56,867 nt of DNA from Vicinamibacterales bacterium. GTDB taxonomy: Bacteria; Acidobacteriota; Vicinamibacteria; Vicinamibacterales; CAVVIG01. Shown piece by piece: positions 4,515-56,203 of the stretch (its first letter is position 1; each line of letters opens with the position of its first letter). The translations under genes were made by a program, and so were the position numbers. Location of the stretch: NCBI GenBank assembly GCA_040081555.1, contig JBEBGG010000004.1:1-56867 (forward strand). Reading direction: 5' to 3'. The notes under the pieces are model-generated. The model did no database searches. It was not told the origin of the DNA and saw only the letters and a list, made by a program, of their open reading frames with translations.

Positions 4515-8738
<4,224 letters not shown>

Positions 8739-8742
8739 CGAT

Positions 8743-13035
<4,293 letters not shown>

Positions 13036-36312: not shown

Positions 36313-37386
36313 TTGAAGATTCTCCTCATTCGACTTAGGCAAATCGGCGACGTCGTCTTCACGACGCCAGCCGTTCACGCTCTTCGACGGCAGTTCCCAC
36401 ACGCGCATCTCTCCTACCTCGTTGAACCCGCCGCCGCGCCGGTCGTTGCCCACAACCCGCATCTCTCTCAGGTGATCGTCGCGCCCCGCCGGTCCGGACT
36501 GATTGGCACGCTCGCGGACCTCAGCCTCGGCCGCAGGCTCAGGCGCAACGACTTCGACCTTGTGATCGACTTTCATGGAGGCCCCCGCGCATCACTACTC
36601 GCATGGCTGAGCGGCGCGCCCCGCCGCATTGGTTACGACATTCCAGGACGAGGCTGGATGTACACCGACGTCGTCGCCAGGCCGCGCGAGCTGCGCCCCC
36701 GCCACTCCGTCGAGAACCAGTGGGATCTGCTCGCCCCTCTCGGGATCGGCGCGCCAACGCCAGAGGGGTTTCCGGTTGAGATGCTCACTGGCGGCGATGC
36801 CGAGGAGCGAGTGACGAGGCGGCTGAAGGCGGCTGGGATTGCCGGCCAACTGATCATCGTCATGCACGTGAGCGCGGGCAATCCGTTCCGGCGCTGGCCG
36901 GTGGCCTCATTCGGCGAAGTGGCGGCCCGACTGCTTGCCGATCAGTCCCACCGCCGCATCATCGTCACCTCGGGTCCGTCTGAAGCCGACGCCGCGGCGC
37001 GGGTGGTCAACGACGCACGACTACGCCTTCCTGCCTTGCAGCAGTCGCACGTTGAGGCGTGGAGCGACGACTTCCCACTTGAAGACTTGCGCGCCCTGAG
37101 CGCGCGGGCCGCGCTCTACATCGGCGGCGACAGCGGTCCCATGCACGTCGCAGCCACGAGCGACGTCCCGATGGTGTCGCTCTACGGCCCGACCCTGCCA
37201 GCACGCTCGGCCCCATGGCGCAGTCACCCCGAACGAGCCGTCGCCGTTGGGGTGCAGGACCTGGCGTGCCGCCCCTGCGATCAACGCGTGTGCGTCACAC
37301 ACGACTTTCGGTGCCTCGGCCGTCTGGAACCGGCGGCTGTACTCGCCGCGGCCGAATTTCTGCTGGCAAACGAACGGGTACACTAG
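36313..37386 (+). CDS. Glycosyltransferase family 9 (LPS heptosyltransferase-like)
   Basis: KILLIRLRQIGDVVFTTP, RRWP, GGDSGPMHVA and SLYGPT; TTG start directly after the Trm112 stop. Confidence 0.92.
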   Translation: MKILLIRLRQIGDVVFTTPAVHALRRQFPHAHLSYLVEPAAAPVVAHNPHLSQVIVAPRRSGLIGTLADLSLGRRLRRNDFDLVIDFHGGPRASLLAWLSGAPRRIGYDIPGRGWMYTDVVARPRELRPRHSVENQWDLLAPLGIGAPTPEGFPVEMLTGGDAEERVTRRLKAAGIAGQLIIVMHVSAGNPFRRWPVASFGEVAARLLADQSHRRIIVTSGPSEADAAARVVNDARLRLPALQQSHVEAWSDDFPLEDLRALSARAALYIGGDSGPMHVAATSDVPMVSLYGPTLPARSAPWRSHPERAVAVGVQDLACRPCDQRVCVTHDFRCLGRLEPAAVLAAAEFLLANERVH

Positions 37387-37398
37387 AACAACGAGGCC

Positions 37399-38637
37399 AT
37401 GACCAACGCTCAGGCGATCAGCGCCGTGCCCGCGCGTGACGGCACCACGGCATCGATGACCGGCCGTCTCGAACTGGCGGGCACGCTCTCGATCTTCGGG
37501 ATGGCGATCGCGGTCCAGTTTTCGATCGCCATTGCCCAGCTCGCCTTGGCTATCGCCATCGTCTGCTGGCTGGCCGTCAGCTACGTCGGCCGAGAGCGGG
37601 TGGCGGTGCCGCGTTTCTTCTGGCCGGTCGTGGCCTACTGCGGATGGACGCTGGTCTCTTCCATCTTCTCCGGCAATCCAGGCCTCAGCCTGCTCGACTC
37701 CAAACAGCTGGTGCTGTTTCTCATTGTCCCGGTCGCCTATCGCTTCATCTCAGCCCAACGCGCGCCGCTGCTGCTGACCATGGTCATGTCGATCGGCGCG
37801 GTCAGCGCCGCCTACGGGCTCTTTCAGTGGGCGCTGCTTCATTACAACGAGGTGGGCCTGCGGCCCCAGGGCACGCTCGGACACTACATGACCTACTCCG
37901 GTCTCCTGATGCAAGTCCTCGGCATCGCCATCGCCAAGCTGCTGTTCGCGCGAGGCGAGCGCGTCTGGGCCGCACTTGTCATGCCCGCCCTACTGATGAC
38001 CGTGGCATTGACCCTGTCGAGAAACGCGTGGGTCGGTACCTTCGCCGCAGCGGCGGTCCTGCTGGCACTCAAGGACCTGCGCCTACTGCTCACACTCCCG
38101 ATGGTCGCCGGCCTGACACTGACCCTTGCCGGGTCGGTGGTGAATGCCCGCGTGTTGTCGATGTTCAATTCACAGGACGCCACACGGGTCGATCGCATCG
38201 CGATGATCCGCGAAGGCATCCACATGGTGCAGGCCCACCCTCTGGTCGGCGTCGGCCCCAACATGGTCAAGGAACTCTACGAGCAGTTCCGCGTCCCGGG
38301 CGCAATCGAAAGGATCAACCCGCATCTGCACAACGTTCCGGTGCAGATTGCCGCCGAGCGAGGTCTCCCGGCGCTCGCGTGCTGGCTCGCATTCATTGGG
38401 CTGCTGTTTGTCGATCTCTGGCGCGCCTTCAAACGGCGGAGTCCGACTGCAGGAAACTCCCACATAGTCAATCCGCAAAAGTCTGTGGTCGGGGCGGCCC
38501 TGGCCGGCCTCATTGCCATGGTCGCCGGCGGCATGTTCGAGTACAACTTCGGCGACTCGGAATTTCTCATGCTCTTCCTACTGATCGCGGTCCTGCCATT
38601 CGTGCCAAGCCGCCAGACAGCGAGCACTGCATCGTGA
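37399..38637 (+). CDS. O-antigen ligase family membrane protein
   Basis: Multiple TM helices, LTLSRNAW, HPLVGVG and HLHNVPVQIAAERG. Confidence 0.88.
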   Translation: MTNAQAISAVPARDGTTASMTGRLELAGTLSIFGMAIAVQFSIAIAQLALAIAIVCWLAVSYVGRERVAVPRFFWPVVAYCGWTLVSSIFSGNPGLSLLDSKQLVLFLIVPVAYRFISAQRAPLLLTMVMSIGAVSAAYGLFQWALLHYNEVGLRPQGTLGHYMTYSGLLMQVLGIAIAKLLFARGERVWAALVMPALLMTVALTLSRNAWVGTFAAAAVLLALKDLRLLLTLPMVAGLTLTLAGSVVNARVLSMFNSQDATRVDRIAMIREGIHMVQAHPLVGVGPNMVKELYEQFRVPGAIERINPHLHNVPVQIAAERGLPALACWLAFIGLLFVDLWRAFKRRSPTAGNSHIVNPQKSVVGAALAGLIAMVAGGMFEYNFGDSEFLMLFLLIAVLPFVPSRQTASTAS

Positions 38638-39617
38638 CTCTTCCTGCACTCAGGCCAGCCCGCGCGCGAGATCTGATCGCCAGTTTCAGGGGACTGCCCG
38701 TGCTGGTGGTCGGCGACGTCATGCTGGATCGCTTCATCGTCGGCGACGTCACGCGCATTTCCCCAGAAGCGCCGGTCCCGGTGGTCCGCTTCCGGTCCGA
38801 ACACGTGCGCCTAGGTGGCGCCGCCAACGTCGTGCAGAATCTGGCAGCATTTGGCGCCCGCGTCTCGCTGATCGGTCTTGTCGGCGCCGATGCCGCCGCG
38901 GCGCGCGTCCGCGAGTTGCTCGACGCATGCGGCGTCTCGGGTGAAGGGTTGGTCGAGGATCGCAGTCGGCCCACGGTCGAAAAGGTGCGAATCGTCACGG
39001 GACGTAACCAGCAGGTCGCCAGAATCGACTACGAGGAAGACACCGACGCGACTGGGGACGTCGAGGCTCGCATCGTCAAGGCAGTGCTCGACGCCGCGCC
39101 GCACGCGTCGATCCTGCTCGCCTCCGACTATCTGAAAGGCACGCTGACGAGGGCGACCATGCGAGCGCTGGTGGCGGCAAAGACCAACTCACGCCGACTT
39201 CTCGTCGATCCGAAGATTCCACACCTCGAACACTACGCCGGCGCCAGCCTGGTCACGCCGAACCATCTCGAGGCAGAAATCGCCACGCATCAGCGCATTC
39301 GAACGGACGACGATGCGCGGCTGGCGGCGGTGGCGTTCCGGGAGCGCGCGCGGTGCGACGCGGCATTGATTACGCGTGGTGAGCACGGGCTATGGCTGTC
39401 GAGTCCGGACATGGAAGGCGCGGTGCCGGCTGTGGCCCGAGAAGTGTCCGACGTCACCGGCGCGGGCGACACCGTGGTGGCGACGCTCGCGCTAGTGCTC
39501 GCAGCCGGCGGCACGCTCGCCGAAGCCGCGGTCCTCGCCAACCAGGCCGCCGGCATCGTCGTCGGCAAGTTCGGGCCAGCGACAGTCACGCCCGCCGAGC
39601 TCGCCGCAGCCTTCTAG
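38634..39617 (+). CDS. rfaE1: D-glycero-beta-D-manno-heptose-7-phosphate kinase (HldE/RfaE kinase domain only)
   Basis: VVGDVMLD, RISPEAPVPVV, GGAANV, SDYLKG, TPNHLE and DVTGAGDTV. GTG 38634 overlaps the ligase stop; the ORF-track extension to 37644 is out of frame with the ligase. Confidence 0.93.
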   Translation: MTLPALRPARARDLIASFRGLPVLVVGDVMLDRFIVGDVTRISPEAPVPVVRFRSEHVRLGGAANVVQNLAAFGARVSLIGLVGADAAAARVRELLDACGVSGEGLVEDRSRPTVEKVRIVTGRNQQVARIDYEEDTDATGDVEARIVKAVLDAAPHASILLASDYLKGTLTRATMRALVAAKTNSRRLLVDPKIPHLEHYAGASLVTPNHLEAEIATHQRIRTDDDARLAAVAFRERARCDAALITRGEHGLWLSSPDMEGAVPAVAREVSDVTGAGDTVVATLALVLAAGGTLAEAAVLANQAAGIVVGKFGPATVTPAELAAAF

Positions 39618-42399: not shown

Positions 42400-43836
42400 T
42401 CAGAAGATCGTGCTGATCGAGGCTGCGGCCCAGTCCATCACCTGCGCGGGCAGGATGCCGAGATACAGCACAAGCACCGCCGACGCCAGCAGCGCAAGCG
42501 CAGCAATAGCGGGCACGGCGGGCACGCGGATCGGTTCGTTGTTCGGCGTCATGTACATCATCACGATGACACGCAGGTAGAAGAACACCGAAACGACGCT
42601 CGTCAGTACACCGATAATCGCCAGCCACGTATAGCCAGCGCTGATCGTCGCCATGAAGACGTAGTACTTGGCAATGAAGCCGCCGAAGGGGGGGAACCCG
42701 CCGAGCGACAGGAGGAACATGGCCATGAGCCCGGCGAGGACGGGATGCTGGTTCCACAGCCCGGCGTAGTCCTTGAACTGATCGTTTGGCCGCTCACGGC
42801 TTTCGATCAGCCCGATGAGGCCGAAGGCGCCTAGGTTGGTGACAGCGTAGGTCAGCAAATAGAACAGAATCGCGCCCTTACCAAGGTCGTTGGCGGCGAG
42901 GAGCGCGGCCAGCAGATAGCCACCGTGCGCGATGCTCGAATACGCCAGCATGCGCTTGAGGCTCGACTGCGCCACACCAACCACGGTGCCCAGGATCATC
43001 GTGGCGGCGGCGATCGCCCAGATGATTGGCGCCCAGTCAGCGCGTAGCGGTTCGTAGGCCGAGAGGAAGACACGGGCGAACGCCGCAAAGGCCGCGGCCT
43101 TGACGCCAGTGGACATGAAGCCCGTGACCGGCGGCGGCGCGCCCTCGTAGGCGTCCGGGGTCCACATGTGAAACGGCACCGCCGCCACCTTGAACGCAAA
43201 GCCGACCAGTAGCAAGCCCATCGCCATCAGCTGTAGCGGCGCAGGGTGCATCGATTGCGCCGCGATCATCGCGCCGATCTGCGTGAGGCTGGTCGAACCC
43301 GTCACGCCGTACGTCAGGGCAATGCCGTACAGGAAGAACGAGCTGGCAAAGGCGCCGAGGAGGAAGTATTTCATCGCCGCCTCGCTGGCGACCGGTCGGT
43401 CACGGCGAATGCCGGTCAGAACGTAGACCGCCAGCGACATCACTTCCAGTGCGAGGAAGATCACCAACAAGTCTGTAGCCGTTGCCATCAGGATCATTCC
43501 ACCGAGGGCAAACAGCATCAGCGCGTAGTACTCACCAAGCGGCAACCCTTCGCGTTCAACGACAGGGCCCGACAGCGCGATCGACAGCACGCCGACAATG
43601 ATCAGGATCCAGGTGACAAACAGCCCGAAGTTGTCGGCGACGACCACGCCAAAGCTGGCCGTGTTGCGGTCCCACAGCAGGAACGTCGCGACCGACGCAC
43701 CAATCAGGCCGATGATCCCGAGCGGACCGATCGGCATCCGCTCGCCCGGCGCGCGGAAGGCTTCGGCGAGCATCGCTGCGATCCCCGCAGCGAAGACACA
43801 GGCCATCGGCACGATAGCGTTCATGGAGGAGAACAT
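42400..43836 (-). CDS. nuoN: NADH-quinone oxidoreductase subunit N
   Basis: LEVMSL, EAAMKYFLLG, FKVAAVPFHMWTPDAYEGAP and KRMLAYSSI. Confidence 0.97.
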   Translation of the reverse strand: MFSSMNAIVPMACVFAAGIAAMLAEAFRAPGERMPIGPLGIIGLIGASVATFLLWDRNTASFGVVVADNFGLFVTWILIIVGVLSIALSGPVVEREGLPLGEYYALMLFALGGMILMATATDLLVIFLALEVMSLAVYVLTGIRRDRPVASEAAMKYFLLGAFASSFFLYGIALTYGVTGSTSLTQIGAMIAAQSMHPAPLQLMAMGLLLVGFAFKVAAVPFHMWTPDAYEGAPPPVTGFMSTGVKAAAFAAFARVFLSAYEPLRADWAPIIWAIAAATMILGTVVGVAQSSLKRMLAYSSIAHGGYLLAALLAANDLGKGAILFYLLTYAVTNLGAFGLIGLIESRERPNDQFKDYAGLWNQHPVLAGLMAMFLLSLGGFPPFGGFIAKYYVFMATISAGYTWLAIIGVLTSVVSVFFYLRVIVMMYMTPNNEPIRVPAVPAIAALALLASAVLVLYLGILPAQVMDWAAASISTIF

Positions 43837-43838
43837 GG

Positions 43839-45401
43839 CTAGTTGCCCCCCCGCGTCTGCGCCAGCGAGATGTCGCTATTGGTCGGCGTGGATGGCACAT
43901 GGGCCTGCACAGAGGAGCCCTGCTTCAACTGACTGAGCAACCGCTCAATGGACGGCCCCATGGGCTTGAGAAACAGATTCGGCAGCACGCCCATGACGAT
44001 CGAGAGTGCAATGACAGGGATCAGCAGTGCCCACTCTCGGGGCTTCAGGTCCGGCAGCGCCTTGTTCTTTTCGGTGATCGGCCCGTAGTTCACGCGCTGG
44101 AACATCCACAGCATGTAGGTAGCCGAGAGGATCACGCCCGTGGCGGCGAAGGCCGCAAGCGTCGGATTCCAGGCAAACGCGCCAAGCAGAATCAGAAACT
44201 CTCCAACGAAGCCGTTCAGACCAGGCAAACCAATCGACGCCAGTGTGATGATGAGGAAAGCGGCCACGAGGCGCGGTGTCACATGCTTGAGGCCGCCATA
44301 CTCCGAAATCAGCCGCGTGTGACGCCGGTCGGACAACATGCCGACAATGAGGAAGAGGCCGCCGGTGCTGATCCCGTGATTCAGCATTTGGTAGACAGCG
44401 CCTTGCACGCCGTGCGTGTTCATCGCGGTAATGCCGAGAACAACGAACCCGAGGTGGCTGACGCTCGAATACGCGACCAGCTTCTTCATGTCCGGCTGCA
44501 CCATCGCCACCAGCGCGCCGTAGATGATGCCAATCACCGCCAGTAGAGCGAGGTAGGGCGCGAAGTAGGCCGCGGCTTCGGGAAACAGCGGAAATGCGAA
44601 ACGCAAGAGTCCGTAGGTCCCCATCTTCAACAGCACGCCGGCGAGAATCACTGAACCGGCGGTGGGCGCTTCAACGTGCGCGTCAGGCAGCCATGTGTGG
44701 AACGGGAACAGTGGCACCTTGATCGCAAACGCCAGGGCAAAGGCCAGGAAGAACCAGAACTGCAAGTGTGACGGGACAGTGAGCGTGTACAGCTCGAGCA
44801 GGTCAAAACTGTATCGACCGGTGGCCGTCGCATAGAGGCCTGCCATGCCGAGGATCGCAAGCAGCATCAAGACGCTGCCGGCCATCGTGTAGAGCAGGAA
44901 CTTGATCGACGCGTAGATCCGGCGGTCGTACCCCCAGATCCCGATGAGGAAGTACATCGGAATGAGCATCGCGTCCCAAAACACATAGAAGAGAAACAGA
45001 TCGAGTGAGACGAACACGCCGATCATCGCCGACTCGAGCAGCAGCACCACCATGCAGAAGGCGCGGAGTTTCTTGTGCACCGATTCCCATGAACAGAGCA
45101 GGGCGATTGGTGTCAGGAATCCGGTAAGCACGATGAGCAGCAGGCTGATGCCATCGACGCCCACGGCGTAACCGATGCCAAACGCCGGAATCCAGGCGTG
45201 GCGCTCAACGAGCTGGAACTCGGCCGAACTGCTGTCGAACTGCGCCCACAACAGGACGGTGACCGCAAACACCAGCAGCGACACGCCAAGAGCGGCGTTA
45301 CGGATAATCGATTCGTGCTCGTGATCGTCTTTGAACGCCAGAAGCGCGAGGGCGCCGACGATTGGCAGGGCGATAAGCGCAGTCAGTATCGGAAATGGCA
45401 T
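43839..45401 (-). CDS. nuoM: NADH-quinone oxidoreductase subunit M
   Basis: GVDGISL, KVPLFPFHTWLPDAHVEAPT and KKLVAYSSVSH. Start ATG 45401. Confidence 0.97.
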   Translation of the reverse strand: MPFPILTALIALPIVGALALLAFKDDHEHESIIRNAALGVSLLVFAVTVLLWAQFDSSSAEFQLVERHAWIPAFGIGYAVGVDGISLLLIVLTGFLTPIALLCSWESVHKKLRAFCMVVLLLESAMIGVFVSLDLFLFYVFWDAMLIPMYFLIGIWGYDRRIYASIKFLLYTMAGSVLMLLAILGMAGLYATATGRYSFDLLELYTLTVPSHLQFWFFLAFALAFAIKVPLFPFHTWLPDAHVEAPTAGSVILAGVLLKMGTYGLLRFAFPLFPEAAAYFAPYLALLAVIGIIYGALVAMVQPDMKKLVAYSSVSHLGFVVLGITAMNTHGVQGAVYQMLNHGISTGGLFLIVGMLSDRRHTRLISEYGGLKHVTPRLVAAFLIITLASIGLPGLNGFVGEFLILLGAFAWNPTLAAFAATGVILSATYMLWMFQRVNYGPITEKNKALPDLKPREWALLIPVIALSIVMGVLPNLFLKPMGPSIERLLSQLKQGSSVQAHVPSTPTNSDISLAQTRGGN

Positions 45402-45405
45402 CCCG

Positions 45406-47427
45406 CTATTTCCACAAGTAGTAGCCGAGCACGAAGACGACGCCGAAGACCAGCGATGCGGCATACGCGCGCACCGACCCGGTCTGGAACAGCTTCAGTC
45501 CGTTACTCAGGAGGCCGACGGCCCCTGCCGTCCCATTCACCATGCCGTCGATGATTCGCACATCGACGACCTTCCACAGACCGAACTCCGATAACAGTTT
45601 CAGAGGCTGCACAATCAGCGCGTCGTAGATTTCATCGACGTAGTACTTGTTGGACAGCAACGTTCGCAAGCCCCCAAAACTCTCGGCAATTCCGTCAGCG
45701 GCTCGACGGCTCTTCACGAAGAAGAACCACGCGACGCCAATGCCCGCGATACCGACCAGAGAGGACGTGACCATCAACCTCAGCTCGAGGCCTTCGTCCG
45801 CGGCATGTCCCATCGGTTCCCCGACTTCGCCCGATGTGCCATGGACCTGGACTTCGTGGGCCTGGACTTCGTGGGCCTCTACCTCGAGGTTCTGCGCCAG
45901 GAACGTCTCTATCCGGTTGGAGCCGCCAATCACGTGCGGCACACCCACGTAGCCAGCCAGCACCGACCCGATCGCCAGGACCACCAACGCGAAGGCCATC
46001 GCCTTCGGCGCATCGTGCAGGTGCGAGCTATGGCCGTGCGCACCGTGCCCATGGGCCCCGTGGTCGCCATGGGCGGCCGCAGCAGCAACGACGCGCTCGC
46101 CGTGAAAGGTCATGAACACGAGGCGGAACATGTAGACGGCCGTCAGGAATGACGTCAGCACGCCGAGCATCCACAGATAGGTATGGCCGCTAGCGTAGGT
46201 GCGGTAAAGGATTTCGTCCTTGCTGAAGAAGCCCGCCAGTCCGGGGAAGCCGGCGATCGCCAACGCACCGATCAGGAAGGTCCAGTAGGTGATGGGCAGA
46301 TCCCTCTTCAGTCCGCCCATCCTTCGCATGTCCTGCTCTCCCGCCAGCGCGTGAATCACCGCGCCGGAGCCCAGGAACATCAACGCTTTGAAGAACGCAT
46401 GCGTGTAGAGATGGAAGATGCCGCCGGTGAAGGCGCCGACGCCCATCGCCAGAAACATATAACCGAGCTGCGACACGGTCGAATACGCCAGCACGCGCTT
46501 GATGTCGTTCTGGACCAGACCGATCGTGCCCGCCATGAACGCGGTCAGCACGCCGACGGTCGCAATGATCGTCATGGTCTCGGGCGCATGACTGAAGAGC
46601 ACGGCGTTGCGTCCAATCATGTACACGCCTGCCGTCACCATCGTCGCGGCGTGGATGAGGGCGGACACGGGAGTCGGCCCTTCCATCGCATCCGGCAGCC
46701 AGATGTAGAGAGGAAGCTGCGCCGACTTGCCCGTCGCGCCCACAAAGAGCAGCAGCGTCGCCAGCGAGATGGTGCCAAAGGTCGCCTCGGGGCTGAGCGC
46801 GGCCACCTTATGGGCCAGCTCCTGGAAGTCGACCGTACCGAAGGTCACAAACAGCAGCAACACTCCGAGCACAAAGCCGAAGTCGCCGATGCGGTTGACG
46901 ATGAAGGCCTTCTTGCCGGCGTCGTTAGCCGACTTCTTCGAGAAATAGAAGCCAATGAGCAGGTAAGAACAAAGACCAACGCCCTCCCAACCGACGAACA
47001 TGACCAGGAAGTTGGCGCCGAGCACCAGCACCAGCATGAACGCGGCAAAGAGATTCAAGTACGAGAAGTAGCGCGCGAACTCTGAGTCGCGCTCCTCGTG
47101 CATATAGGCGGTCGAGTAGATGTGAATCAGCGAACCAATGCCCGTGATCACGAGAATCATCAGCGCCGACAGCGGATCGAGCCGGAGCGTGAAGTCCGCC
47201 TCGAAGCTACCCGACGAGATCCAGCTGAAGATCCGGTCGACGATGGCCCGGTCGCCTTCCGGCATACCGAGCAACTGAAGGACCGACGCAAGGGCGACCG
47301 CAAACGACCCGACCATCGCCGCACAAGCGACGCCGCCAGCGACGGACTGCTTCAGACGTTTGCCGACACTGGCGTTGATGAGGAAGCCGATGAACGGCAG
47401 CAGGGGAATCAGCAGCAACATGCTCAT
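45406..47427 (-). CDS. nuoL: NADH-quinone oxidoreductase subunit L
   Basis: WEGVG, NRIGD, GKSAQLPL, WLPDAMEGPTPVSALIHAATMV and HAFFKA. ATG overlaps the nuoK stop. Confidence 0.98.
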   Translation of the reverse strand: MSMLLLIPLLPFIGFLINASVGKRLKQSVAGGVACAAMVGSFAVALASVLQLLGMPEGDRAIVDRIFSWISSGSFEADFTLRLDPLSALMILVITGIGSLIHIYSTAYMHEERDSEFARYFSYLNLFAAFMLVLVLGANFLVMFVGWEGVGLCSYLLIGFYFSKKSANDAGKKAFIVNRIGDFGFVLGVLLLFVTFGTVDFQELAHKVAALSPEATFGTISLATLLLFVGATGKSAQLPLYIWLPDAMEGPTPVSALIHAATMVTAGVYMIGRNAVLFSHAPETMTIIATVGVLTAFMAGTIGLVQNDIKRVLAYSTVSQLGYMFLAMGVGAFTGGIFHLYTHAFFKALMFLGSGAVIHALAGEQDMRRMGGLKRDLPITYWTFLIGALAIAGFPGLAGFFSKDEILYRTYASGHTYLWMLGVLTSFLTAVYMFRLVFMTFHGERVVAAAAAHGDHGAHGHGAHGHSSHLHDAPKAMAFALVVLAIGSVLAGYVGVPHVIGGSNRIETFLAQNLEVEAHEVQAHEVQVHGTSGEVGEPMGHAADEGLELRLMVTSSLVGIAGIGVAWFFFVKSRRAADGIAESFGGLRTLLSNKYYVDEIYDALIVQPLKLLSEFGLWKVVDVRIIDGMVNGTAGAVGLLSNGLKLFQTGSVRAYAASLVFGVVFVLGYYLWK

Positions 47428-47729
47428 TACCACTTCAACGCCGTGAAGGTGTCAGGATTGAGCGACTCCCGATGCCGGAAGAGCGCGATGACGATGGCGA
47501 GGCCGACGGCGGCTTCGGCGGCGGCGACGGTCATGACAAAGAACACAATGATTTGCCCGTCCGCGGTCCCAAACGCACGTCCGAAGGCAACAAACGTCAG
47601 GTTGACCGCGTTCAGCATGATTTCAATCGACAGCAGAATCGTGATGAGATTCCGCCTGACGAACACGCCGGCAGCGCCAATGGAGAAGAGCACAGCCGAG
47701 AGCACGAGGTAATCGTTGAGCGTCGGCAT
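47427..47729 (-). CDS. nuoK: NADH-quinone oxidoreductase subunit K
   Basis: [13 protein letters not shown] and [11 protein letters not shown]. Confidence 0.97.
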
Positions 47730-48259
47730 CAGCGTCCCTCCCTCCGCGCGTCCGCTCGTGGTTCACGACGGGCCATGAGAACAGCGCCAACCATGGCGAC
47801 GAGAATCAGCACCGAGGTCACTTCGAACTGGAAGGCGTAGGTCGTGAACAGTGACTTGCCAATCATTGCGACCGACACCACCGGTGTCGGGCCAAACTGT
47901 TCGTTGGGCGCCCCTGAGCTGAGCGCCCAGACCAGTTCGACCACCAGCAACAGTGCGAGGGCCGCACCAAACCGCATTGGTCCCGGCCGCAGCAGGGGGT
48001 GCACCCGCTCGTCGTACTGCGTGTCTTCATGCGGCGCATTGAGCAACATGACGACAAACAGAAACAACACCATGATGGCGCCGGCGTAGACAATGATCTG
48101 GATGACCGCGGCAAACGGCGCGTCCAGCAGCACGTAGAGACCGGACAGCGCGCCAAACGACGCGATGAGCAGCAGAACGCTGTAGACCGGATTGCGCTGA
48201 GCGATGACCAGCAACGACGTCAGCACCGCGACGGCCGCGAAGAGATAGAAGAGCGTCAT
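47729..48259 (-). CDS. nuoJ: NADH-quinone oxidoreductase subunit J
   Basis: [27 protein letters not shown] and [15 protein letters not shown]. Confidence 0.96.
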
Positions 48260-49284
48260 AGCCCGAAATACAGCACAGCGGCCGCCGTCACAAGGAGGTT
48301 GATGACCGAGGCCGGCAAGAGAATCTTCCAGCCAAACGACATCAGCTGGTCGTAGCGGTAGCGCGGCAGCGTCCAGCGCATCCAGACGTAGAAGAACAGC
48401 AGCGCGCCGACTTTAGCGAGAAACACCAGCCAACCGAACGACACCGGCACGAATGGGAAGTACCAGCCGCCCAGAAACAGATCCGTCGCCACCGCCGAGA
48501 CGGTGACCATGTTGATGTATTCCGCCAGGAAGAACAGCGCGAATGCCATCGAGCTGTACTCGGTGTGATAGCCAGCCACGAGTTCCTGCTCGGCTTCGGG
48601 AAAGTCGAACGGCGCCCGGTTGGTTTCGGCGATACCTGCGGTCATGAAGATCAGGAACCCGAGGGGTTGCAGAAAGACGAACCAGCGTGCAGACGGAATC
48701 CCCAGCAGACTCGCACCCTGCGCATGGACGATGTCGGTGATCGACATCGAATTCGCCAGAATCAGCACGCCGACCAGCGACAAACCGTAGGACAACTCGT
48801 AGCTGATCATCTGCGCCGACGAGCGAAGGCCGCCAAGCAACGAGTACTTGCTGTTGCTCGCCCAGCCAGCGAGCACGATGCCGTAGACGCCCATCGAGGC
48901 GATGGCAAAGACGACCAGGACGGCAACGTTGACGTCCGCTACCTGCAACTTCAGCGGTTCATCGAACAGACCGAAGATGGTCGTCTCCGGACCGATCGGT
49001 ACGACCGCAAACGCTGCAAACGCCGTAGCGGCGCAGATCAGGGGCGCGATGTAGAACAGCAGGACGTCTGCGGCCGCCGGCCGAAGGTTTTCCTTGAACA
49101 GCAGCTTCAACACATCCGCAAATGGCTGAAGGAGCCCGGCGGGCCCGACCCGCGTGGGGCCGACGCGCTGCTGCATACGCGCCGCCTCTTTGCGCTCCAC
49201 CCAAACCATGCCTGCAGCAGCATGCACGAGGCCCAGCAGCACGACGACGAACATGGCGATCTGGCCGACGATGACCGGGAGCAT
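48256..49284 (-). CDS. nuoH: NADH-quinone oxidoreductase subunit H
   Basis: ERKEAARMQQRVGP, QPFADVLKL, NRAPFDFPEAEQEL and PRYRYDQLM. Start ATG 49284. Confidence 0.97.
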   Translation of the reverse strand: MLPVIVGQIAMFVVVLLGLVHAAAGMVWVERKEAARMQQRVGPTRVGPAGLLQPFADVLKLLFKENLRPAAADVLLFYIAPLICAATAFAAFAVVPIGPETTIFGLFDEPLKLQVADVNVAVLVVFAIASMGVYGIVLAGWASNSKYSLLGGLRSSAQMISYELSYGLSLVGVLILANSMSITDIVHAQGASLLGIPSARWFVFLQPLGFLIFMTAGIAETNRAPFDFPEAEQELVAGYHTEYSSMAFALFFLAEYINMVTVSAVATDLFLGGWYFPFVPVSFGWLVFLAKVGALLFFYVWMRWTLPRYRYDQLMSFGWKILLPASVINLLVTAAAVLYFGL

Positions 49285-49286
49285 GT

Positions 49287-50588
49287 CTAGTGCGCCCCCA
49301 CCGGATGCTGTGCGCGCCAGTCGGCGTGCAGCGTGCACCGGCCCTCGCGCACGTGCGCTTCGAATTCGTGCCGGAAGTGTTTCAGCGTCGTCAACACGGG
49401 CGTTGCCGCCGCATCGCCGAAGGCACACAGGGTCTTGCCATTGATGTTGCCGGCCACACTGCCCAATAGATCGATATCGCGCATCGTGCCCTGGCCACCT
49501 TCCACCCTCGCGAGCAGTTTATAGAGCCAGTCGGTCCCTTCGCGGCAGGGTGTGCACTTGCCGCACGACTCGTGTTTGTAGAAGTGCAGCAGGTTCATGG
49601 CCAACCACACCATGCACACCGAGTCGTCGAGCACGATGATGGCGGCAGAGCCGAGCAGCGAGCCAGCTTTGGCCACCGCGTCGAAACTCGCCTGAGTGTC
49701 GAGTTGGTCCGGCAACAGAATCGGCACCGATGATCCGCCCGGAATCACCGCCTTCAGCTTCCGGCCATTGGGAACGCCGCCGGCGTACCTGTCGCCTTCG
49801 ATGAGTTCGCGCAGCGTGATGTTCATCGACGCTTCAAACACGCCGGGATTCTTGACGTGGCCGCTCACGCAGTACAGCTTCGGCCCACCGTTCTTCTCGG
49901 GGCCCAGCGCCGCGAACCATTCAGGTCCCTTGTCAATGATCAGCGGAACGTTGGTCAGCGTCTCGACGTTATTGACGGCGGTCGGGCAACCGTAAAGACC
50001 AAACACGGCGGGAAACGGCGGCTTGTTCCGCGGCTGCGCACGCTTGCCTTCGAGCGATTCGAGGAGGGCCGTCTCCTCGCCCGCTTCGTACGCGCCGGCG
50101 CCGCGGTGCACGAACACCTCGCAGTCGAACCCTGACCCGAAGATGTTCTTGCCCAGATACCCCTTGGCGTGCGCTTCCGCGATCGCCGCCTCGAGGTGCA
50201 ACTGCACGTGGTAGAACTCGCCGCGAATGTAGATGTAGGCGACTTTCGCACCGATCGCGTAGCAGGCAATCGCACACCCTTCTATCAACAGGTGCGGGTT
50301 GCGCTCCATCAGCACGTGGTCTTTGAACGTGCCCGGCTCGCTCTCGTCGGCGTTGCAGACGATGTAGCGCGGATTGACTGATTTCTTGTCGACGAACTGC
50401 CACTTCATGCCGGTCGGAAAGCCCGCGCCGCCACGACCGCGCAGGCCCGACGCCTTCACCATCTCGATGATCTGATCGGGCGTATTCCCGAGCGCCTTCT
50501 TGAGGGCGCCATACCCGCCGTGCGACAGATAGCTGTCGATCGAGAAGGCGTTTCTCTCGCGGACGTGAGGAGTGAGCAAGGGTTCCAT
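49287..50588 (-). CDS. nuoF: NADH-quinone oxidoreductase subunit F (FMN, N3 cluster)
   Basis: GRGGAGFPTG, NADESEPG, GAYEAGEETAL and SCGKCTPCREG...LCAFG. Confidence 0.98.
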   Translation of the reverse strand: MEPLLTPHVRERNAFSIDSYLSHGGYGALKKALGNTPDQIIEMVKASGLRGRGGAGFPTGMKWQFVDKKSVNPRYIVCNADESEPGTFKDHVLMERNPHLLIEGCAIACYAIGAKVAYIYIRGEFYHVQLHLEAAIAEAHAKGYLGKNIFGSGFDCEVFVHRGAGAYEAGEETALLESLEGKRAQPRNKPPFPAVFGLYGCPTAVNNVETLTNVPLIIDKGPEWFAALGPEKNGGPKLYCVSGHVKNPGVFEASMNITLRELIEGDRYAGGVPNGRKLKAVIPGGSSVPILLPDQLDTQASFDAVAKAGSLLGSAAIIVLDDSVCMVWLAMNLLHFYKHESCGKCTPCREGTDWLYKLLARVEGGQGTMRDIDLLGSVAGNINGKTLCAFGDAAATPVLTTLKHFRHEFEAHVREGRCTLHADWRAQHPVGAH

Positions 50589-50651
50589 AGGATTACGCCA
50601 CAGCGGCGCGCTGACACAGAGGCCTGTGGCTCACTGTGGTTGCACGCTCCG

Positions 50652-51254
50652 TCACTTGCCCTCCATCACGAGGTGGCAGCCAGTAAGGGAGGACTCCCCT
50701 TTCGCACGGAGGTCGTCGAGCAGCTTCTTGACGCCTTCGGGGCGCTGATGCTCCTGCCAGGCGTCGTTCACCATGATGACCGGCGCGCGATCACACGCGC
50801 CCAGACATTCGACCTCGAGCACCGTGAAAGTGCCGGTCGCGTCCGTCTCGCCCGGTTTGATATTGAGCGCGTGGCAGAGTTCGGCCGTCACCCGTTCGGC
50901 CCCATTGACGGCGCAGGACAGCGTGCGGCAGACACTCAGCACGTACTTGCCGACGGCCTTTCTGAAAAACATCGTGTAGTAGGTGACGACATCTTCGACG
51001 TCCGCAGGCGTAATCTCCAGCAGGCCGGCCACGTAACGCATCGACGCGCCCGTGATGAAGCCCTGCTGATACTGCACAAGGTACAAGGCCGGAAGCACCG
51101 CGGACCGTTTCTGGTCGGGTGGATAGCGCACAATGATCTCGTTGAACTTGGCGAGGTTGTCTGGCGTGTAGACAAACGGTTCGCCCTGCTCGGTGAGTTC
51201 CCGCACCGACTTCTGAAATGTGGCGCCATACGCCATCTCGGGATGGAAGCTCAC
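50652..51254 (-). CDS. nuoE: NADH-quinone oxidoreductase subunit E (2Fe-2S)
   Basis: CRTLSC and ECLGACDRAP cluster ligands; GTG start overlaps the nuoD stop. Confidence 0.95.
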   Translation of the reverse strand: MSFHPEMAYGATFQKSVRELTEQGEPFVYTPDNLAKFNEIIVRYPPDQKRSAVLPALYLVQYQQGFITGASMRYVAGLLEITPADVEDVVTYYTMFFRKAVGKYVLSVCRTLSCAVNGAERVTAELCHALNIKPGETDATGTFTVLEVECLGACDRAPVIMVNDAWQEHQRPEGVKKLLDDLRAKGESSLTGCHLVMEGK

Positions 51255-52432
51255 CGGTCCACGTCTCCCATGACGACGTCAATCGAGCCGATGACGGCTA
51301 TGACGTCTGCAATCAGTCCACCGACAATCAGACGCTCGAGCGCCTGGCAGGCGAGCAGCGACGGCGCGCGCGACTTGATTCGCCACGGCCGGTTCGTGCC
51401 GTCGGACACAATCGAGAAGCCCTGCTCGCCGCGGGGCCCTTCGACCGGCACGTACGATTCGCCGGCCGGCACCACGAAGCCCTGCGAATACAGGAGAAAG
51501 TGCTGAATGAGCGCTTCCATCTCGGTGTAGACGGCGGCCTTCGGCGGTGGCGTAATCTTGGGGTCCGCCACGGCGTAGACACCGATCGGCGAAATCCGGT
51601 CGAGCGCCTGCCGCACCAGTTTCATCGACTCCTTCAACTCGGCGACGCGGACCTGATAGCGCGAATAAACGTCGCCCTTCTGCTGCACGGGGACGTTGAA
51701 GTCGTAGGTCTCGTAGCCAAGATACGGGAACGCCTTGCGGACGTCGTAGCCGACGCCGGCCGCACGCGCGATCGGCCCGACCAGACCGTAGGCCACGGCG
51801 TCTTCCGCGGAAACGACACCCACGCCTTTGGTGCGCTCCATGTAGATGTGGTTCTTGGTGAGCAGATCTTCGTACTCGCCCAACTTGATCTCGAGTCGAT
51901 CGATAAAGGTGCGGACGGCCTCGTGGAAGCCGCGCGGCAAATCCTCACGCACACCGCCGACGCGCATGTAGCTCGGAAACAGGCGGAAACCCGCCAGCAT
52001 CTCGTTCAGATTGAGGAGCAACTCGCGCTCGCGGAAGCAGTAGAGCATCACCGACACGGCGCCCACTTCCATGCCGTGCGTGCCCAGCCACACGAGGTGA
52101 CTATTGATCCGCTGCAGTTCAGCAACCAGAACGCGGATGTCCTTCACGCGCTGCGGCAGCTCGAGGCCGAGCAACTGCTCGACCGACAGGCAGAACGCCA
52201 TGCTGTTGGACTGCGCGCTCAGGTAGTCCATCCGCTCGACGAGCGGAATGATCTGTTGCCACTTCTTCTGCTCCGCGGTCTTCTCGATGCCGGTATGCAG
52301 GAAACCGATCGTCGGAGCGCAGGCACGGACCGTTTCGCCATCGAGCTCCAGCACCAGCCGCAGCACGCCGTGCGTGCTGGGGTGCTGAGGCCCCATGTTG
52401 ACGGTCATTGTTTCAGAGCGCAGTTCAGGCAA
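51251..52432 (-). CDS. nuoD: NADH-quinone oxidoreductase subunit D
   Basis: NMGPQHPSTHGVLRL, GFLHTGIEK, ERMDYL and DVVMGDVDR. Probable TTG start at 52432 with GGAGAG upstream. Confidence 0.97.
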   Translation of the reverse strand: MPELRSETMTVNMGPQHPSTHGVLRLVLELDGETVRACAPTIGFLHTGIEKTAEQKKWQQIIPLVERMDYLSAQSNSMAFCLSVEQLLGLELPQRVKDIRVLVAELQRINSHLVWLGTHGMEVGAVSVMLYCFRERELLLNLNEMLAGFRLFPSYMRVGGVREDLPRGFHEAVRTFIDRLEIKLGEYEDLLTKNHIYMERTKGVGVVSAEDAVAYGLVGPIARAAGVGYDVRKAFPYLGYETYDFNVPVQQKGDVYSRYQVRVAELKESMKLVRQALDRISPIGVYAVADPKITPPPKAAVYTEMEALIQHFLLYSQGFVVPAGESYVPVEGPRGEQGFSIVSDGTNRPWRIKSRAPSLLACQALERLIVGGLIADVIAVIGSIDVVMGDVDR

Positions 52433-53000
52433 CGAAGGCTCTCTCCACCAAATCACACAATACGTGCAGCAGCGTGCGATGCACTTCCTGCACCCGAGGC
52501 GTCGACGTCGACGGCACGTTGATATGCACGTCGGCGCTTCGCCCAGCCGCGCCGCCGTCAGAGCCGGTCAGCGCAATCGTTTCAATTCCGCGCGCCCGCG
52601 CCGTATGCAGGGCCGCCAGCACATTCGGCGAACCGCCACTCGTCGTAATCGCGAGCACGATATCTCCGGCGCGGCCAAGCGCCTCCACCTGACGCGCGAA
52701 CACGCGATCGAACCCGTAGTCGTTGGCGACGCTCGTCAGCACACTGGTGTCGGTTGTCAACGCGATGGCCGCCATGCCGGACCGCTCACGCTGAAATCGA
52801 CCGACCAATTCCGCAGCGACATGCTGCGCGTCTGCCGCGCTCCCACCATTGCCAAACACCAGGACCTTCCCGCCACGCGTCAATGCCGCCACCACTGCTG
52901 CCGCCGCACGCTCGAGTGACGCCCGCCCTCCGCTCGCGACCCGCTGATGCAGCGCCACCGTGTCTGCAAATGCGCCCGTGAACGCATCAAGATCGGGCAA
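52425..53000 (-). CDS. gmhA: Phosphoheptose (sedoheptulose-7-phosphate) isomerase, SIS domain, inside the nuo operon
   Basis: GNGGSAADAQHVAAELVGRF, ANDYGF, TTSGGSPN and RVQEVH..LLHVLC. TTG start with AAGGA upstream. Confidence 0.93.
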   Translation of the reverse strand: MPDLDAFTGAFADTVALHQRVASGGRASLERAAAAVVAALTRGGKVLVFGNGGSAADAQHVAAELVGRFQRERSGMAAIALTTDTSVLTSVANDYGFDRVFARQVEALGRAGDIVLAITTSGGSPNVLAALHTARARGIETIALTGSDGGAAGRSADVHINVPSTSTPRVQEVHRTLLHVLCDLVERAFVA

Positions 53001-53532
53001 GCCGATCCTTCATCACGTTCGCCTTGAACTCCTCGGCCGTGACCTGCGTCAACGAGCTCGCGTTTGGTTTCATCCGGATCTGCACCGGCGAATCCTTACG
53101 CAACGGGAAGCCTTCCCAGTCCTCCGGCATCAGCAGACGCCTCGGATCAGGATGGCCGTCGAACGCGATGCCGAACAGATCCCACACTTCCCGCTCAAGC
53201 CAGTTGGCCGCCGGCCAGATGTCGCAGCACGTCGGCACGTGCGGATCATGACTCGGCAGCTGCACCTTCAGTCGCAGGCGCAACCGATGCTCCAGCGACA
53301 CCAAAATATAAACGAGTTCGAAACGCGGCGCTCGCGGCCAGAAGTCCACAGCCGTGAGCTCGGCGAGAAATGTAAAGCGCAGCTCAGGACGATCGCGTAG
53401 CGCCTTCAATGTGTCATGCAGCGTGTCAGGCGACGCCATCAGCGTCACCTGCAGATCGATGCTCGGCACGCGCTCAAACTGCGCGCCGGGCAAGACTTCT
53501 TGCAGATGGGCGACCAGCGTTGTCGAATCCAT
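52987..53532 (-). CDS. nuoC: NADH-quinone oxidoreductase subunit C
   Basis: LTAVD, ANWLEREVWDLFGI and GHPDPRRLLMPEDWEGFPLRKD. ATG overlaps the nuoB stop. Confidence 0.96.
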   Translation of the reverse strand: MDSTTLVAHLQEVLPGAQFERVPSIDLQVTLMASPDTLHDTLKALRDRPELRFTFLAELTAVDFWPRAPRFELVYILVSLEHRLRLRLKVQLPSHDPHVPTCCDIWPAANWLEREVWDLFGIAFDGHPDPRRLLMPEDWEGFPLRKDSPVQIRMKPNASSLTQVTAEEFKANVMKDRLARS

Positions 53533-54020
53533 TAGGCGGGTTTCTTCCTGTAGTCGGCCATCTTCGACTGGTCGATCTTGCGCTGCAACTGCACGATCCC
53601 GTAGATCACGGCTTCCGGACGCGGCGGACAGCCGGGCACATAGACGTCCACCGGCACAACTTGATCTACGCCCTGCACGATGGCGTAGTTGTCGAAGACG
53701 CCGCCAATCGATGCGCAGGCGCCCATCGAGATGACCCACTTCGGCTCCGGCATCTGGTCGTAGATGCGACGCAGAGCCGGCGCCATCTTGCGCGACAGGC
53801 GTCCAGCCACGATCATCAGATCAGACTGGCGCGGGCTGCCGCGAAACACTTCAGCGCCGAAGCGCGCGATGTCATAACGGCCACAGCTCATTGCCATCAT
53901 TTCGATGGCACAGCAGGCGAGACCGAACGTGACCGGCCAGATGGCCGATCGTCGCGCCCACTGCACGACTTTCTCGAGCTGAGTGGTAATGACGGGGATT
54001 TCGTATTCTTCAATGCCCAT
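53532..54020 (-). CDS. nuoB: NADH-quinone oxidoreductase subunit B (N2 cluster)
   Basis: [16 protein letters not shown] and PGCPPRPE. Confidence 0.98.
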
Positions 54021-54023
54021 GAA

Positions 54024-54386
54024 TCAGTCCCTGGCGCCCCAGTCCAGCGCGCCCTTACGCCAGACGTAGATATAGCCGGTGAGCAGCAGCGCCATAAAGA
54101 GCAAGACCTGGACAAAACCCGGCCAGCCAAGGTCGCGCAGCGCCATTGCCCATGGGTAGAGGAAGGCCACTTCGATGTCGAACAGAAGAAAAATCATCGC
54201 GACAAGGTAGAACTTGACCGACTGGCGCTCGCGCGCATCGCCCACGGCGGGCATGCCGCACTCGTACGGGGCTGATTTTTCAACGGACGGCCTGCTCGGA
54301 CCGAGGAGCGCAGACAAGCCGATCATCACTCCCCCGAAAACGAGGCCGAGGGCGATCATGATCAGGATGGACAGCCAGCCCTGCAT
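54024..54386 (-). CDS. nuoA: NADH-quinone oxidoreductase subunit A
   Basis: PYECG and FLLFDIEVAFLYPWA. Confidence 0.97.
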   Translation of the reverse strand: MQGWLSILIMIALGLVFGGVMIGLSALLGPSRPSVEKSAPYECGMPAVGDARERQSVKFYLVAMIFLLFDIEVAFLYPWAMALRDLGWPGFVQVLLFMALLLTGYIYVWRKGALDWGARD

Positions 54387-54407
54387 AGGTGAGATAGACG
54401 CTCGCGA

Positions 54408-54433
54408 GAGCTTGTGAACAATTTCTCAAGCTC
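54408..54433. promoter_or_regulatory. Palindromic operator matching the Rex consensus upstream of nuoA
   Basis: GAGC-TTGTGAA-CAAT-TTCTCAA-GCTC versus the Rex box TTGTGAA-N4-TTCACAA (1 mismatch). Confidence 0.65.
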
Positions 54434-54441
54434 GGGCTTTA

Positions 54442-54470
54442 ATGCTACCGGATCGAATGGCATCCGTCCA
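54442..54470 (-). promoter_or_regulatory. Candidate sigma70 promoter of the nuo operon
   Basis: TGGACG-17 nt-TAGCAT on the minus strand, placing the palindrome just downstream of the predicted TSS. Confidence 0.45.
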
Positions 54471-54505
54471 CACAAGAACTGTCCCGAGACCCTCCCCGAC
54501 TCCCG

Positions 54506-56203
54506 TCAGCGCATTCCGGTCGTAGTCGAAGCCGCAACGCCCGGGAGCTCCCACTCGTATCCCGGCGTCATAAGCAGCCGTACGTCCTCGACCGGCGCAC
54601 CGACGGTGAAGTGATACAGGCTCTGGAACGCGTGGCCCTGCAGCCCCATCACTTCATGTACCGCATCGTCGAAGAAGCAGCCGATGCCTGTGCCGCGAAT
54701 GCCCGCGGCCTCGGCCTCGAGATAGAGCATCTGCCCCACAACACCCGACTCCCAGAACAAGCGCCGGTAGGAACTGGCGCCCTCCTCGATGAGTGGCGCT
54801 GCGAATTCAGCAATCATCCCTAGACTGAAGAAACCGTCGGCCGCAATGTTCTGGTCACAGCTGAGACGCCTGGCAAGCCCGCGGCAGTCGCCCACCGCAA
54901 GGCGAGTCAGCGGCAGGTGCGAATGTGCCGGTTCAGCGACAAAATCGCGACCACACGCCTCGCGCAGCGCCGCGCCACCGCTCGCACTCCTGGCAAAGAG
55001 ATAGAGGCCGGGCTCCACACCGGTCACGCGGTGAACGAAAAGCAGGAGATGAATCCGTGGCGGCCACCAGAGCGCGCTCCACGGCCCGCGGCCGTCAGGG
55101 AGCAGCCGCGACAGCATCGCAAAAAAGGCCTCGGCCTCAATCGCGGCGCGCCCATCAAAAGCGACCGCACTTCGACGCTGCAACAGCAACCCGCGAACAT
55201 CAGCAGGCACCGGCGTTACCGCCGACACCGCCGATGCGGCCGCAAGGTCCGGCTGCATTCGAACCCGCGCGGCTGCGAAATGGGCATCACCACCGGACCG
55301 CGTCGCTGCCGCGATCTCGTCGATGCTGGCCCACTCAATATGGTCTTCACTGAGCTGGCTCGCTCGCCCCACCCAGTGTCCCCGGGCCACGGCTGCCGCA
55401 AGCGCAGCGCCTGATCGGAGAGACTCCGGAACCTGCGCCGCCGCCGGCACGACCGCCATGACGCAGCCCGGTTCTTCTCGCTCCGCTTCGAAGAAGTCCG
55501 CGTCGCGGTCCGCGCCAGTGACGGCTCCCGCCTGGGCATGCGACCAGCCTGGTAGCAATTCAGCGCGCCAGCCGTGGACGCGCGCCGCGATGGCGAGCGC
55601 CGCAATCGCGTGACCGAGATCATGCTGACAGTAGCGGAACGCGCGCTCCCCGTACTTCCACGCCTCTCGCCAATGGATCGACGTGAGCGCGACAAGGACA
55701 ATGCTTGAGCCTTCGGTAAGGGCGCGCCATTCGGCAAGGCTGAATACGCAGCGGCGCTCGAGGGCATGCGCGTCGGGCGCGTAGTGACACACCGCCGGCT
55801 CGCCCATGGCTGTATCTGGCACTGGGCCGATGACATAGGCCTCGGTCGGATGTAGGTTGCCGCTGGAAGGATTGACCCGCAACGCCCACCGCGAAGCCCC
55901 GGCCACTTTCCAGGCCGAGAGCCCGAGTGAATAGCGGAGGAGGCCGCCGAGGAAGCCACACGACAACGGCGTCGCCGCCTCGCCGGCGTCATCAAACAGT
56001 TTCGACCAGGTGACGGGTCGTTCGGGAAGGTGGCCGATACCGGAGGTGGGGTCTGGGGGAAGAGGAAAACGCGGCGCCCCTTCATACGAGCGGAAGGGGC
56101 GCGGCTGCGACGCCCAGTCGAGGTACCCCAGCGACCGGGCGTAGCGATTGAAGTGGTGTTTGGTGCTGTCGTGATAGCGGTAGATCTCGCTATCGGCTGA
56201 CAC
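54506..56203 (-). CDS. SagB/ThcOx-like tandem nitroreductase-fold flavoprotein
   Basis: YHDSTKH, LRVNPSSGNLHPTE, WKYGERAFRY, second domain LLQRRSA and GQMLYLEAEAAG..GTGIGCFFDD. Confidence 0.85.
   Translation of the reverse strand: MSADSEIYRYHDSTKHHFNRYARSLGYLDWASQPRPFRSYEGAPRFPLPPDPTSGIGHLPERPVTWSKLFDDAGEAATPLSCGFLGGLLRYSLGLSAWKVAGASRWALRVNPSSGNLHPTEAYVIGPVPDTAMGEPAVCHYAPDAHALERRCVFSLAEWRALTEGSSIVLVALTSIHWREAWKYGERAFRYCQHDLGHAIAALAIAARVHGWRAELLPGWSHAQAGAVTGADRDADFFEAEREEPGCVMAVVPAAAQVPESLRSGAALAAAVARGHWVGRASQLSEDHIEWASIDEIAAATRSGGDAHFAAARVRMQPDLAAASAVSAVTPVPADVRGLLLQRRSAVAFDGRAAIEAEAFFAMLSRLLPDGRGPWSALWWPPRIHLLLFVHRVTGVEPGLYLFARSASGGAALREACGRDFVAEPAHSHLPLTRLAVGDCRGLARRLSCDQNIAADGFFSLGMIAEFAAPLIEEGASSYRRLFWESGVVGQMLYLEAEAAGIRGTGIGCFFDDAVHEVMGLQGHAFQSLYHFTVGAPVEDVRLLMTPGYEWELPGVAASTTTGMR

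Follow-up and report, generated by a model that had tools for sequence, protein, structure and literature searches.

How does a gene of lipopolysaccharide (LPS) biosynthesis come to lie inside the operon for respiratory complex I, and does its product have any part in that complex? The question is raised by a 56,867-nucleotide stretch of DNA, referred to here as the window, from a Vicinamibacterales bacterium (GenBank assembly GCA_040081555.1, contig JBEBGG010000004.1, positions 1 to 56,867), in which gmhA is located between nuoC and nuoD. The first committed step in making ADP-L-glycero-D-manno-heptose for the LPS inner core is carried out by GmhA. The Vicinamibacterales are abundant, little-studied Acidobacteria of soil and water. 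The results presented below indicate that gmhA is probably a genuine LPS gene that is transcribed with the NADH-dehydrogenase genes and rides as a passenger in their locus. The three genes concerned are:

gmhA: 52425-53000, minus strand, D-sedoheptulose-7-phosphate isomerase of 191 amino acids, TTG start codon
nuoC: 52987-53532, minus strand, 30-kDa subunit, ATG start codon at 53532, last 14 nucleotides overlapping the start of gmhA
nuoD: 51251-52432, minus strand, 49-kDa subunit, TTG start codon, TIGR01962 match of 539 bits (cut-off 459)

The gmhA reading frame extends on the minus strand from a TTG start codon at 53000 to 52425, with a TGA stop codon at 52425-52427. Upstream of the TTG, the frame remains open for just three codons, and an AAGGA sequence is positioned 5 nucleotides ahead of the start. 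The TGA stop codon of nuoC occupies 52987-52989, resulting in a nuoC/gmhA overlap of 14 nucleotides. Alignment with orthologues starting with ATG 'MPEIRTETMTVNMGPQHP' placed the nuoD start at the TTG at 52432, about 10 nucleotides downstream of GGAGAG, so that the gmhA stop and the nuoD start overlap by 8 nucleotides. An earlier note on this DNA, made from the sequence alone, had described an intact gmhA in the complex I operon in the order nuoC-gmhA-nuoD, with overlaps of 14 and 8 nucleotides and a box resembling a Shine-Dalgarno sequence before each start codon. Motifs and coordinates agree with this description, the overlaps are borne out by the stop codons and the nuoD alignment, and both boxes, AAGGA for gmhA and GGAGAG for nuoD, are present. 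In relatives, most of 29 orthologous loci offer gmhA a start codon that overlaps the stop codon of nuoC (-14, -4 or -1); the distance from the gmhA stop to the nuoD start varies from -32 to about +155 nucleotides, and the spacers remain short. A consensus scan revealed no sigma-70-like promoter anywhere in 50500-54700 and no terminator-like site at the nuoC/gmhA or gmhA/nuoD junction; its single terminator-like match falls within nuoA.

To what protein does the inserted gene correspond? Residues 14-146 matched Pfam SIS_2 (PF13580) with 99.9 bits (cut-off 27), and the best NCBIfam models were those of GmhA (NF010546, 228 bits, cut-off 276; TIGR00441, 200.4 bits, cut-off 209.45). The GmhA of H. 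pylori, scored for comparison, was also under the NF010546 cut-off (239.6 bits) and over that of TIGR00441. Among solved structures the best match was GmhA of B. pseudomallei (2xbl/2x3y; E 5e-53, residues 27-188), followed by other GmhA entries. The catalytic and zinc residues H60, E64, Q171 and H179 align with their equivalents in 2xbl, and the substrate motifs GNGGS (G50-S54), N93-D94 and T120-S121-G122-x-S124 are present. Residues H60, E64, N93, D94, Q171 and H179 as well as the GNGGS and TSGxS motifs are invariant in 20 orthologues. The protein has the same length and belongs to the same SIS fold family as GmhA of B. pseudomallei (PDB 2X3Y/2XBL), E. coli, P. aeruginosa, C. jejuni and H. 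pylori, and shares the catalytic residues and substrate motifs of the first of these. Its length is that of the solved GmhA chains, with no extension or extra domain. A look-up of protein clusters gave no public name for the protein. DiaA was rejected as an identity (NF008138, 151 bits, cut-off 352), GmhA structures outranking DiaA. The gene is predicted to encode a canonical GmhA, and its product probably has the corresponding isomerase activity. The SIS gene in these nuo operons encodes a known enzyme; what is unusual, and was previously unreported, is where in an operon it lies. The label 'undescribed system' chosen in the earlier note was not upheld.

The window gene is the sole GmhA homologue of the source genome; the earlier note had suggested looking for another gmhA copy, and in the source genome the search returned a single match, the window gene. 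Is the rest of the pathway present? Verified ADP-heptose enzymes of H. pylori were used as probes. HldD was detected on contig C256 (366 bits, cut-off 274.6) and HldC on C32 (194 bits, cut-off 181.5). A cluster on C305 (C305:12849-16750) encodes a WaaF-like GT9 protein (178 bits, cut-off 134.6), GmhB, a second kinase, a second adenylyltransferase and a WaaC-like GT9 protein. Further LPS-core genes are located in the window itself:

GT9 heptosyltransferase: 36313-37386, plus strand, Glyco_transf_9 match of 108 bits
WaaL-type O-antigen ligase: 37399-38637, plus strand, Wzy_C match of 65 bits
HldA heptose-7-phosphate kinase: about 38676-39617, plus strand, rfaE_dom_I match of 342-345 bits (cut-off 345)

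Altogether, the source genome harbors two HldA-type kinases, GmhB, two HldC, HldD, three GT9 genes and WaaL, and the remaining ADP-L-glycero-D-manno-heptose/LPS-core pathway is, as judged from these matches, present. The window LPS-core cluster (36313-39617, plus strand) is convergent on the nuo operon, from whose nuoN it is separated by purH and one small gene alone. This linkage of nuo operon and LPS-core cluster recurs in relatives.

How widespread is the arrangement? We surveyed 151 Vicinamibacterales genomes, each at least 90% complete, scoring GmhA as present at E <= 1e-30. GmhA was present in 121 of the 151 genomes and was not found in the other 30. Of the 121, about 100, from 14 families, have gmhA between nuoC and nuoD; it is found elsewhere in 19, and two have no assigned context. 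At least one closed genome of the order carries gmhA outside this position. A survey of this kind had been proposed in the earlier note, and with the arrangement in about 100 of the 151 genomes it turned out in favour of a genuine gene order. Among 40 relatives, the order nuoA-B-C-gmhA-D-E was observed in 17 of 19 fetched loci. Outside the order, nuoC-gmhA-nuoD was found neither in those loci of a phylum-wide sample that come from beyond the order, 21 in all, nor in 77 named loci of many phyla. In other Acidobacteriota gmhA is placed between adenylyltransferase and kinase genes. In H. pylori (L046) and other acidobacterial families it is accompanied by hldE, hldD and gmhB, whereas in the window its neighbours are nuoC and nuoD, whose reading frames it overlaps. 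No description of gmhA inside a nuo operon was found in the literature, and the complex I genomics literature examined contains nothing on inserted genes or on Acidobacteria. The gene order provides a clean, order-wide marker for the Vicinamibacterales.

Since the source genome, 99% complete, is an assembly of 351 contigs, an assembly chimera, or else a neutral insertion specific to one strain, might be suspected. A 1363-nucleotide contig of an independent study (X2, record 16) covers 52379-53300 with seven differences and spans both junctions, and contigs of two further studies tile the same stretch, which was found in drinking-water, bioreactor, freshwater and wastewater metagenomes of at least 11 studies. 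Moreover, the same gene order occurs in about 100 genomes, closed or near-closed ones included. A recurrence on this scale is far beyond chance or misassembly, and we attach practically no weight to a chimera or a strain-specific insertion. The earlier note had considered that the arrangement might be confined to one assembly, with unspanned junctions; about 100 genomes and the spanning contig speak to the contrary.

Is gmhA transcribed together with the nuo genes? In a relative (L021), a metatranscriptome contig (X26, record 16; 254 nucleotides, about 95% identity, depth 2.1) spans the end of nuoC and gmhA, and contigs from a library labelled 'metagenomic RNA-Seq' span both junctions. These RNA contigs are weakly suggestive. 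Three RNA runs yielded only short conserved nuoD and nuoC pieces of other organisms and were uninformative for the source organism. Co-transcription of gmhA with nuo is very likely because the genes overlap, no promoter- or terminator-like site was detected at the junctions, and a metatranscriptome contig of one relative joins them. As a separate observation, a contig of a sediment RNA library (run X22) joins sequences corresponding to window positions 52345-52408 (nuoD start) and 53075-53141 (nuoC end) with 120 other letters between them. It comes from a different organism, in which nuoC lies beside nuoD without gmhA.

Two interacting subunits are encoded on either side of gmhA; does this placement reflect a role in complex I? 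The earlier note had proposed, as one of two readings, that the SIS protein is a sugar-phosphate-sensing partner or an assembly factor of the complex. In such a case it would bind near NuoB, NuoC and NuoD, whether to sense sugar phosphates, to assist assembly or to serve as an accessory subunit. Enzyme-like accessory subunits of complex I are known, among them the SDR-like NDUFA9, acyl carrier protein, the plant gamma-carbonic anhydrases and the frataxin-like Nqo15 of Thermus. This precedent and the gene position are the only points in favour of the proposal. It would resemble these enzyme-derived supernumerary subunits; the orthologous operon, however, can do without the gene. In seven genomes (G004, G009, G011, G014, G016, G019 and G023) nuoC directly adjoins nuoD in orthologous operons whose NuoD is 80-84% identical, and genomes with the orthologous operon and no inserted gmhA span at least seven genera of the source genome's family. 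A complex I subunit would be expected wherever the orthologous operon is present, an expectation that gmhA contradicts both by its absence from these seven genomes and by its retention at the nqr locus described below, in a family without an orthologous complex I.

The loss of gmhA tracks the heptose kinase and not complex I. Among 41 genomes compared for gmhA and the linked heptose kinase of the window type, 29 have both genes, nine have neither, three have the kinase only and none has gmhA only (Fisher p = 6e-7, not corrected for phylogeny). Furthermore, genomes with and without gmhA could not be told apart at any alignment column of NuoC or mature NuoD. The full catalytic set of GmhA is under purifying selection. 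Just four scattered positions (H18, G153, H159 and T176) are conserved in nuo-linked GmhA and not outside, no clade-specific surface patch was found on the nuo-linked proteins, and there is no extension or added domain. Taken together, these data render the proposed binding to complex I highly improbable, and we infer that any complex I role of gmhA is absent.

Where gmhA has left the operon, traces of its history are visible. G012 contains a decayed gmhA remnant of about 190 nucleotides between nuoC and nuoD (L114; G012:C13, 2146-2334; residues 99-154, 45% identity) and an intact gmhA elsewhere, beside a GHMP kinase gene and a Wzz gene. Other relocated copies adjoin hldA, gmhB or GT9 genes. 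In the GmhA tree the relocated copies nest among the nuo-linked copies. The tree of this short protein is poorly resolved, the nuo-linked copies require at least 4-8 label changes, and the insertion is not datable from it; it shows just the close kinship of relocated and nuo-linked copies.

An unexpected finding came from family f12, in which a different NADH dehydrogenase occupies the locus. In all eight f12 genomes sampled, gmhA is located 15-35 nucleotides upstream of nqrA as the first gene of gmhA-nqrABCDEF-apbE. In the example L270 (G035:C12:88000-107500), gmhA is found at about 4780-5340 and nqrA at 5354-6730, and the cluster extends through apbE at 11203-12375. The downstream flank is that of the window, consisting of a small MXAN_5187-like gene, purH and the convergent hldA-waaL-GT9 genes. 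The orthologous nuo operon was not found in the f12 genomes, in which only a 48-50% identical paralogue was present. Because the downstream flank is the same and the orthologous nuo operon is gone, Na+-NQR displaced complex I in situ in f12, and gmhA was retained. Families f10 and f17 have the GT1/nqrA locus in common with f12 and have gmhA deleted; neither family has a GmhA, and the linked kinase was absent from both f10/f17 genomes tested (G033 and G040). Elsewhere in the order, nqr coexists with nuo-gmhA at a different locus, and nqr was not found in the source genome.

Has the position been kept by selection, so that heptose and LPS-core synthesis runs in step with NADH:quinone oxidoreductase? 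The other reading of the earlier note was of this kind, linking heptose formation to respiration and the NADH state. With, for example, one redox-responsive promoter, the entry of sedoheptulose-7-phosphate into envelope synthesis would follow respiratory activity. Consistent with such co-regulation, about 100 of the order's 121 genomes with GmhA keep the arrangement, the overlaps between the genes are conserved, and the location immediately upstream of nqrA in eight of eight f12 genomes links gmhA to two unrelated NADH dehydrogenases. However, the same locus and downstream flank show that in situ displacement fully explains the nqr linkage, gmhA was transferred into sugar clusters in at least 10 lineages with no apparent penalty, and neutral persistence is expected of a promoterless essential gene inside an essential operon. 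We regard adaptive co-regulation as unlikely. The history of displacement explains the nqr linkage and is also compatible with a selected co-expression with NADH oxidation. In a stronger form, GmhA expression would be tied to the main NADH:quinone oxidoreductase, one redox or respiratory signal would also adjust LPS-core heptose synthesis, and there might even be a direct physical or regulatory contact; this form appears quite improbable. If it were true, complex I in most families, or Na+-NQR in f12, would set the heptose drain on the sedoheptulose-7-phosphate of the pentose-phosphate pathway.

The most plausible course of events is the following. In an early member of the Vicinamibacterales, gmhA would have entered the main complex I operon at the nuoC/nuoD boundary, perhaps by a move from the LPS-core cluster that still flanks this operon. 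Since then it would have been expressed as a passenger on the nuo polycistronic mRNA, and the overlaps and the one RNA contig suggest that it may be translationally coupled to nuoC and nuoD. Its retention would follow the need for heptose and not the need for complex I, because gmhA was cleanly deleted together with loss of the linked kinase, moved repeatedly to sugar clusters, and was kept when Na+-NQR displaced complex I.

Several observations weigh against a passenger gene encoding GmhA. The protein scores slightly under the curated GmhA cut-offs. The X26 RNA contig has a low depth (2.1) and could stem from DNA carry-over. Persistence in 14 families and attachment to the non-homologous nqr genes could mean that co-expression with NADH oxidation is selected. 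Finally, G010, G011, G016, G018, G033 and G040 are without a detectable GmhA yet keep a cluster of hldE-like kinase/adenylyltransferase genes and gmhB, flanked by two GT9 heptosyltransferase genes, whose counterpart in the source genome is C305:12849-16750. As some GmhA-less genomes still carry this hldE-gmhB-GT9 cluster, the heptose logic of the order is not fully understood.

Are passenger genes of this kind known? Xu, Matsuno-Yagi and Yagi (in 1993) and Dupuis et al. (in 1998; reference 15 of PMC4859585) reportedly found unidentified reading frames in the nqo and nuo clusters of Paracoccus denitrificans and Rhodobacter capsulatus. Like gmhA, these are non-subunit genes in an otherwise canonical nuo operon and presumably co-transcribed with it; they mostly encode small proteins of unknown function, whereas gmhA specifies a recognisable housekeeping enzyme of another pathway, is placed between nuoC and nuoD and occurs order-wide. 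Mosaic operons and in situ gene displacement are said to have been described by Omelchenko et al. in Genome Biology in 2003. The f12 locus is similar in that complex I genes were replaced by the analogous, non-homologous Na+-NQR genes while flanks and gmhA were kept. It differs from known in situ displacement in that a whole 13-gene respiratory operon was swapped around a retained unrelated passenger, which is now the first gene. The kind of phenomenon is thus already known, namely an unrelated gene in a nuo cluster, a mosaic operon and displacement in situ, and nuoC-gmhA-nuoD reveals no new molecular system. It does represent a well-documented case of an essential envelope gene as passenger of a respiratory operon, one that was repeatedly lost without trace, was relocated, left behind a decayed remnant and persisted when Na+-NQR replaced complex I. 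For annotation, the SIS gene in these nuo operons is to be named gmhA and not a complex I subunit. In terms of physiology, these bacteria probably supply heptose to the LPS core in step with nuo (or nqr) transcription.

The window contains the only nuo cluster in the source genome. Apart from nuoC (Complex1_30kDa, 158 bits; TIGR01961, 138 bits, above cut-off) and nuoD, it comprises the following genes:

nuoA: 54024-54386, minus strand, from the list of open reading frames, head of the operon
nuoB: 53532-54020, minus strand, Oxidored_q6 match, head of the operon together with nuoA
nuoE, F, H, J, K, L, M and N: 42400-51254, minus strand, Pfam matches for E, F and H, from the list of open reading frames

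nuoG and nuoI are not within this operon, whose part at 48256-50588 is without both. A NuoG/Nqo3-like gene stands alone in the source genome at C59:560-2347 (L268), flanked by genes for a peptidase M1 and a DsbD-like protein, and NuoI was not found anywhere in the source genome (TIGR01971, E <= 1e-8). Many relatives (L118-L132; for example G040:C1:1312651 and G009:C2:3037368) have a second, divergent nuo-like cluster with 40-50% identical NuoC and NuoD and no nuoB between nuoA and nuoC; the source genome is without such a cluster. In G006, a 64%-complete genome, gmhA, nuoA, nuoC, nuoD and hldA are present in frame-shifted pieces on one contig (G006:C12:398004-413848), for which sequencing or assembly errors are a more likely cause than pseudogene formation. 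Directly upstream of nuoA and on the same strand, the window carries an open reading frame of 565 amino acids (54506-56203, minus strand), whose sole match was to a nitroreductase family in its C-terminal part.

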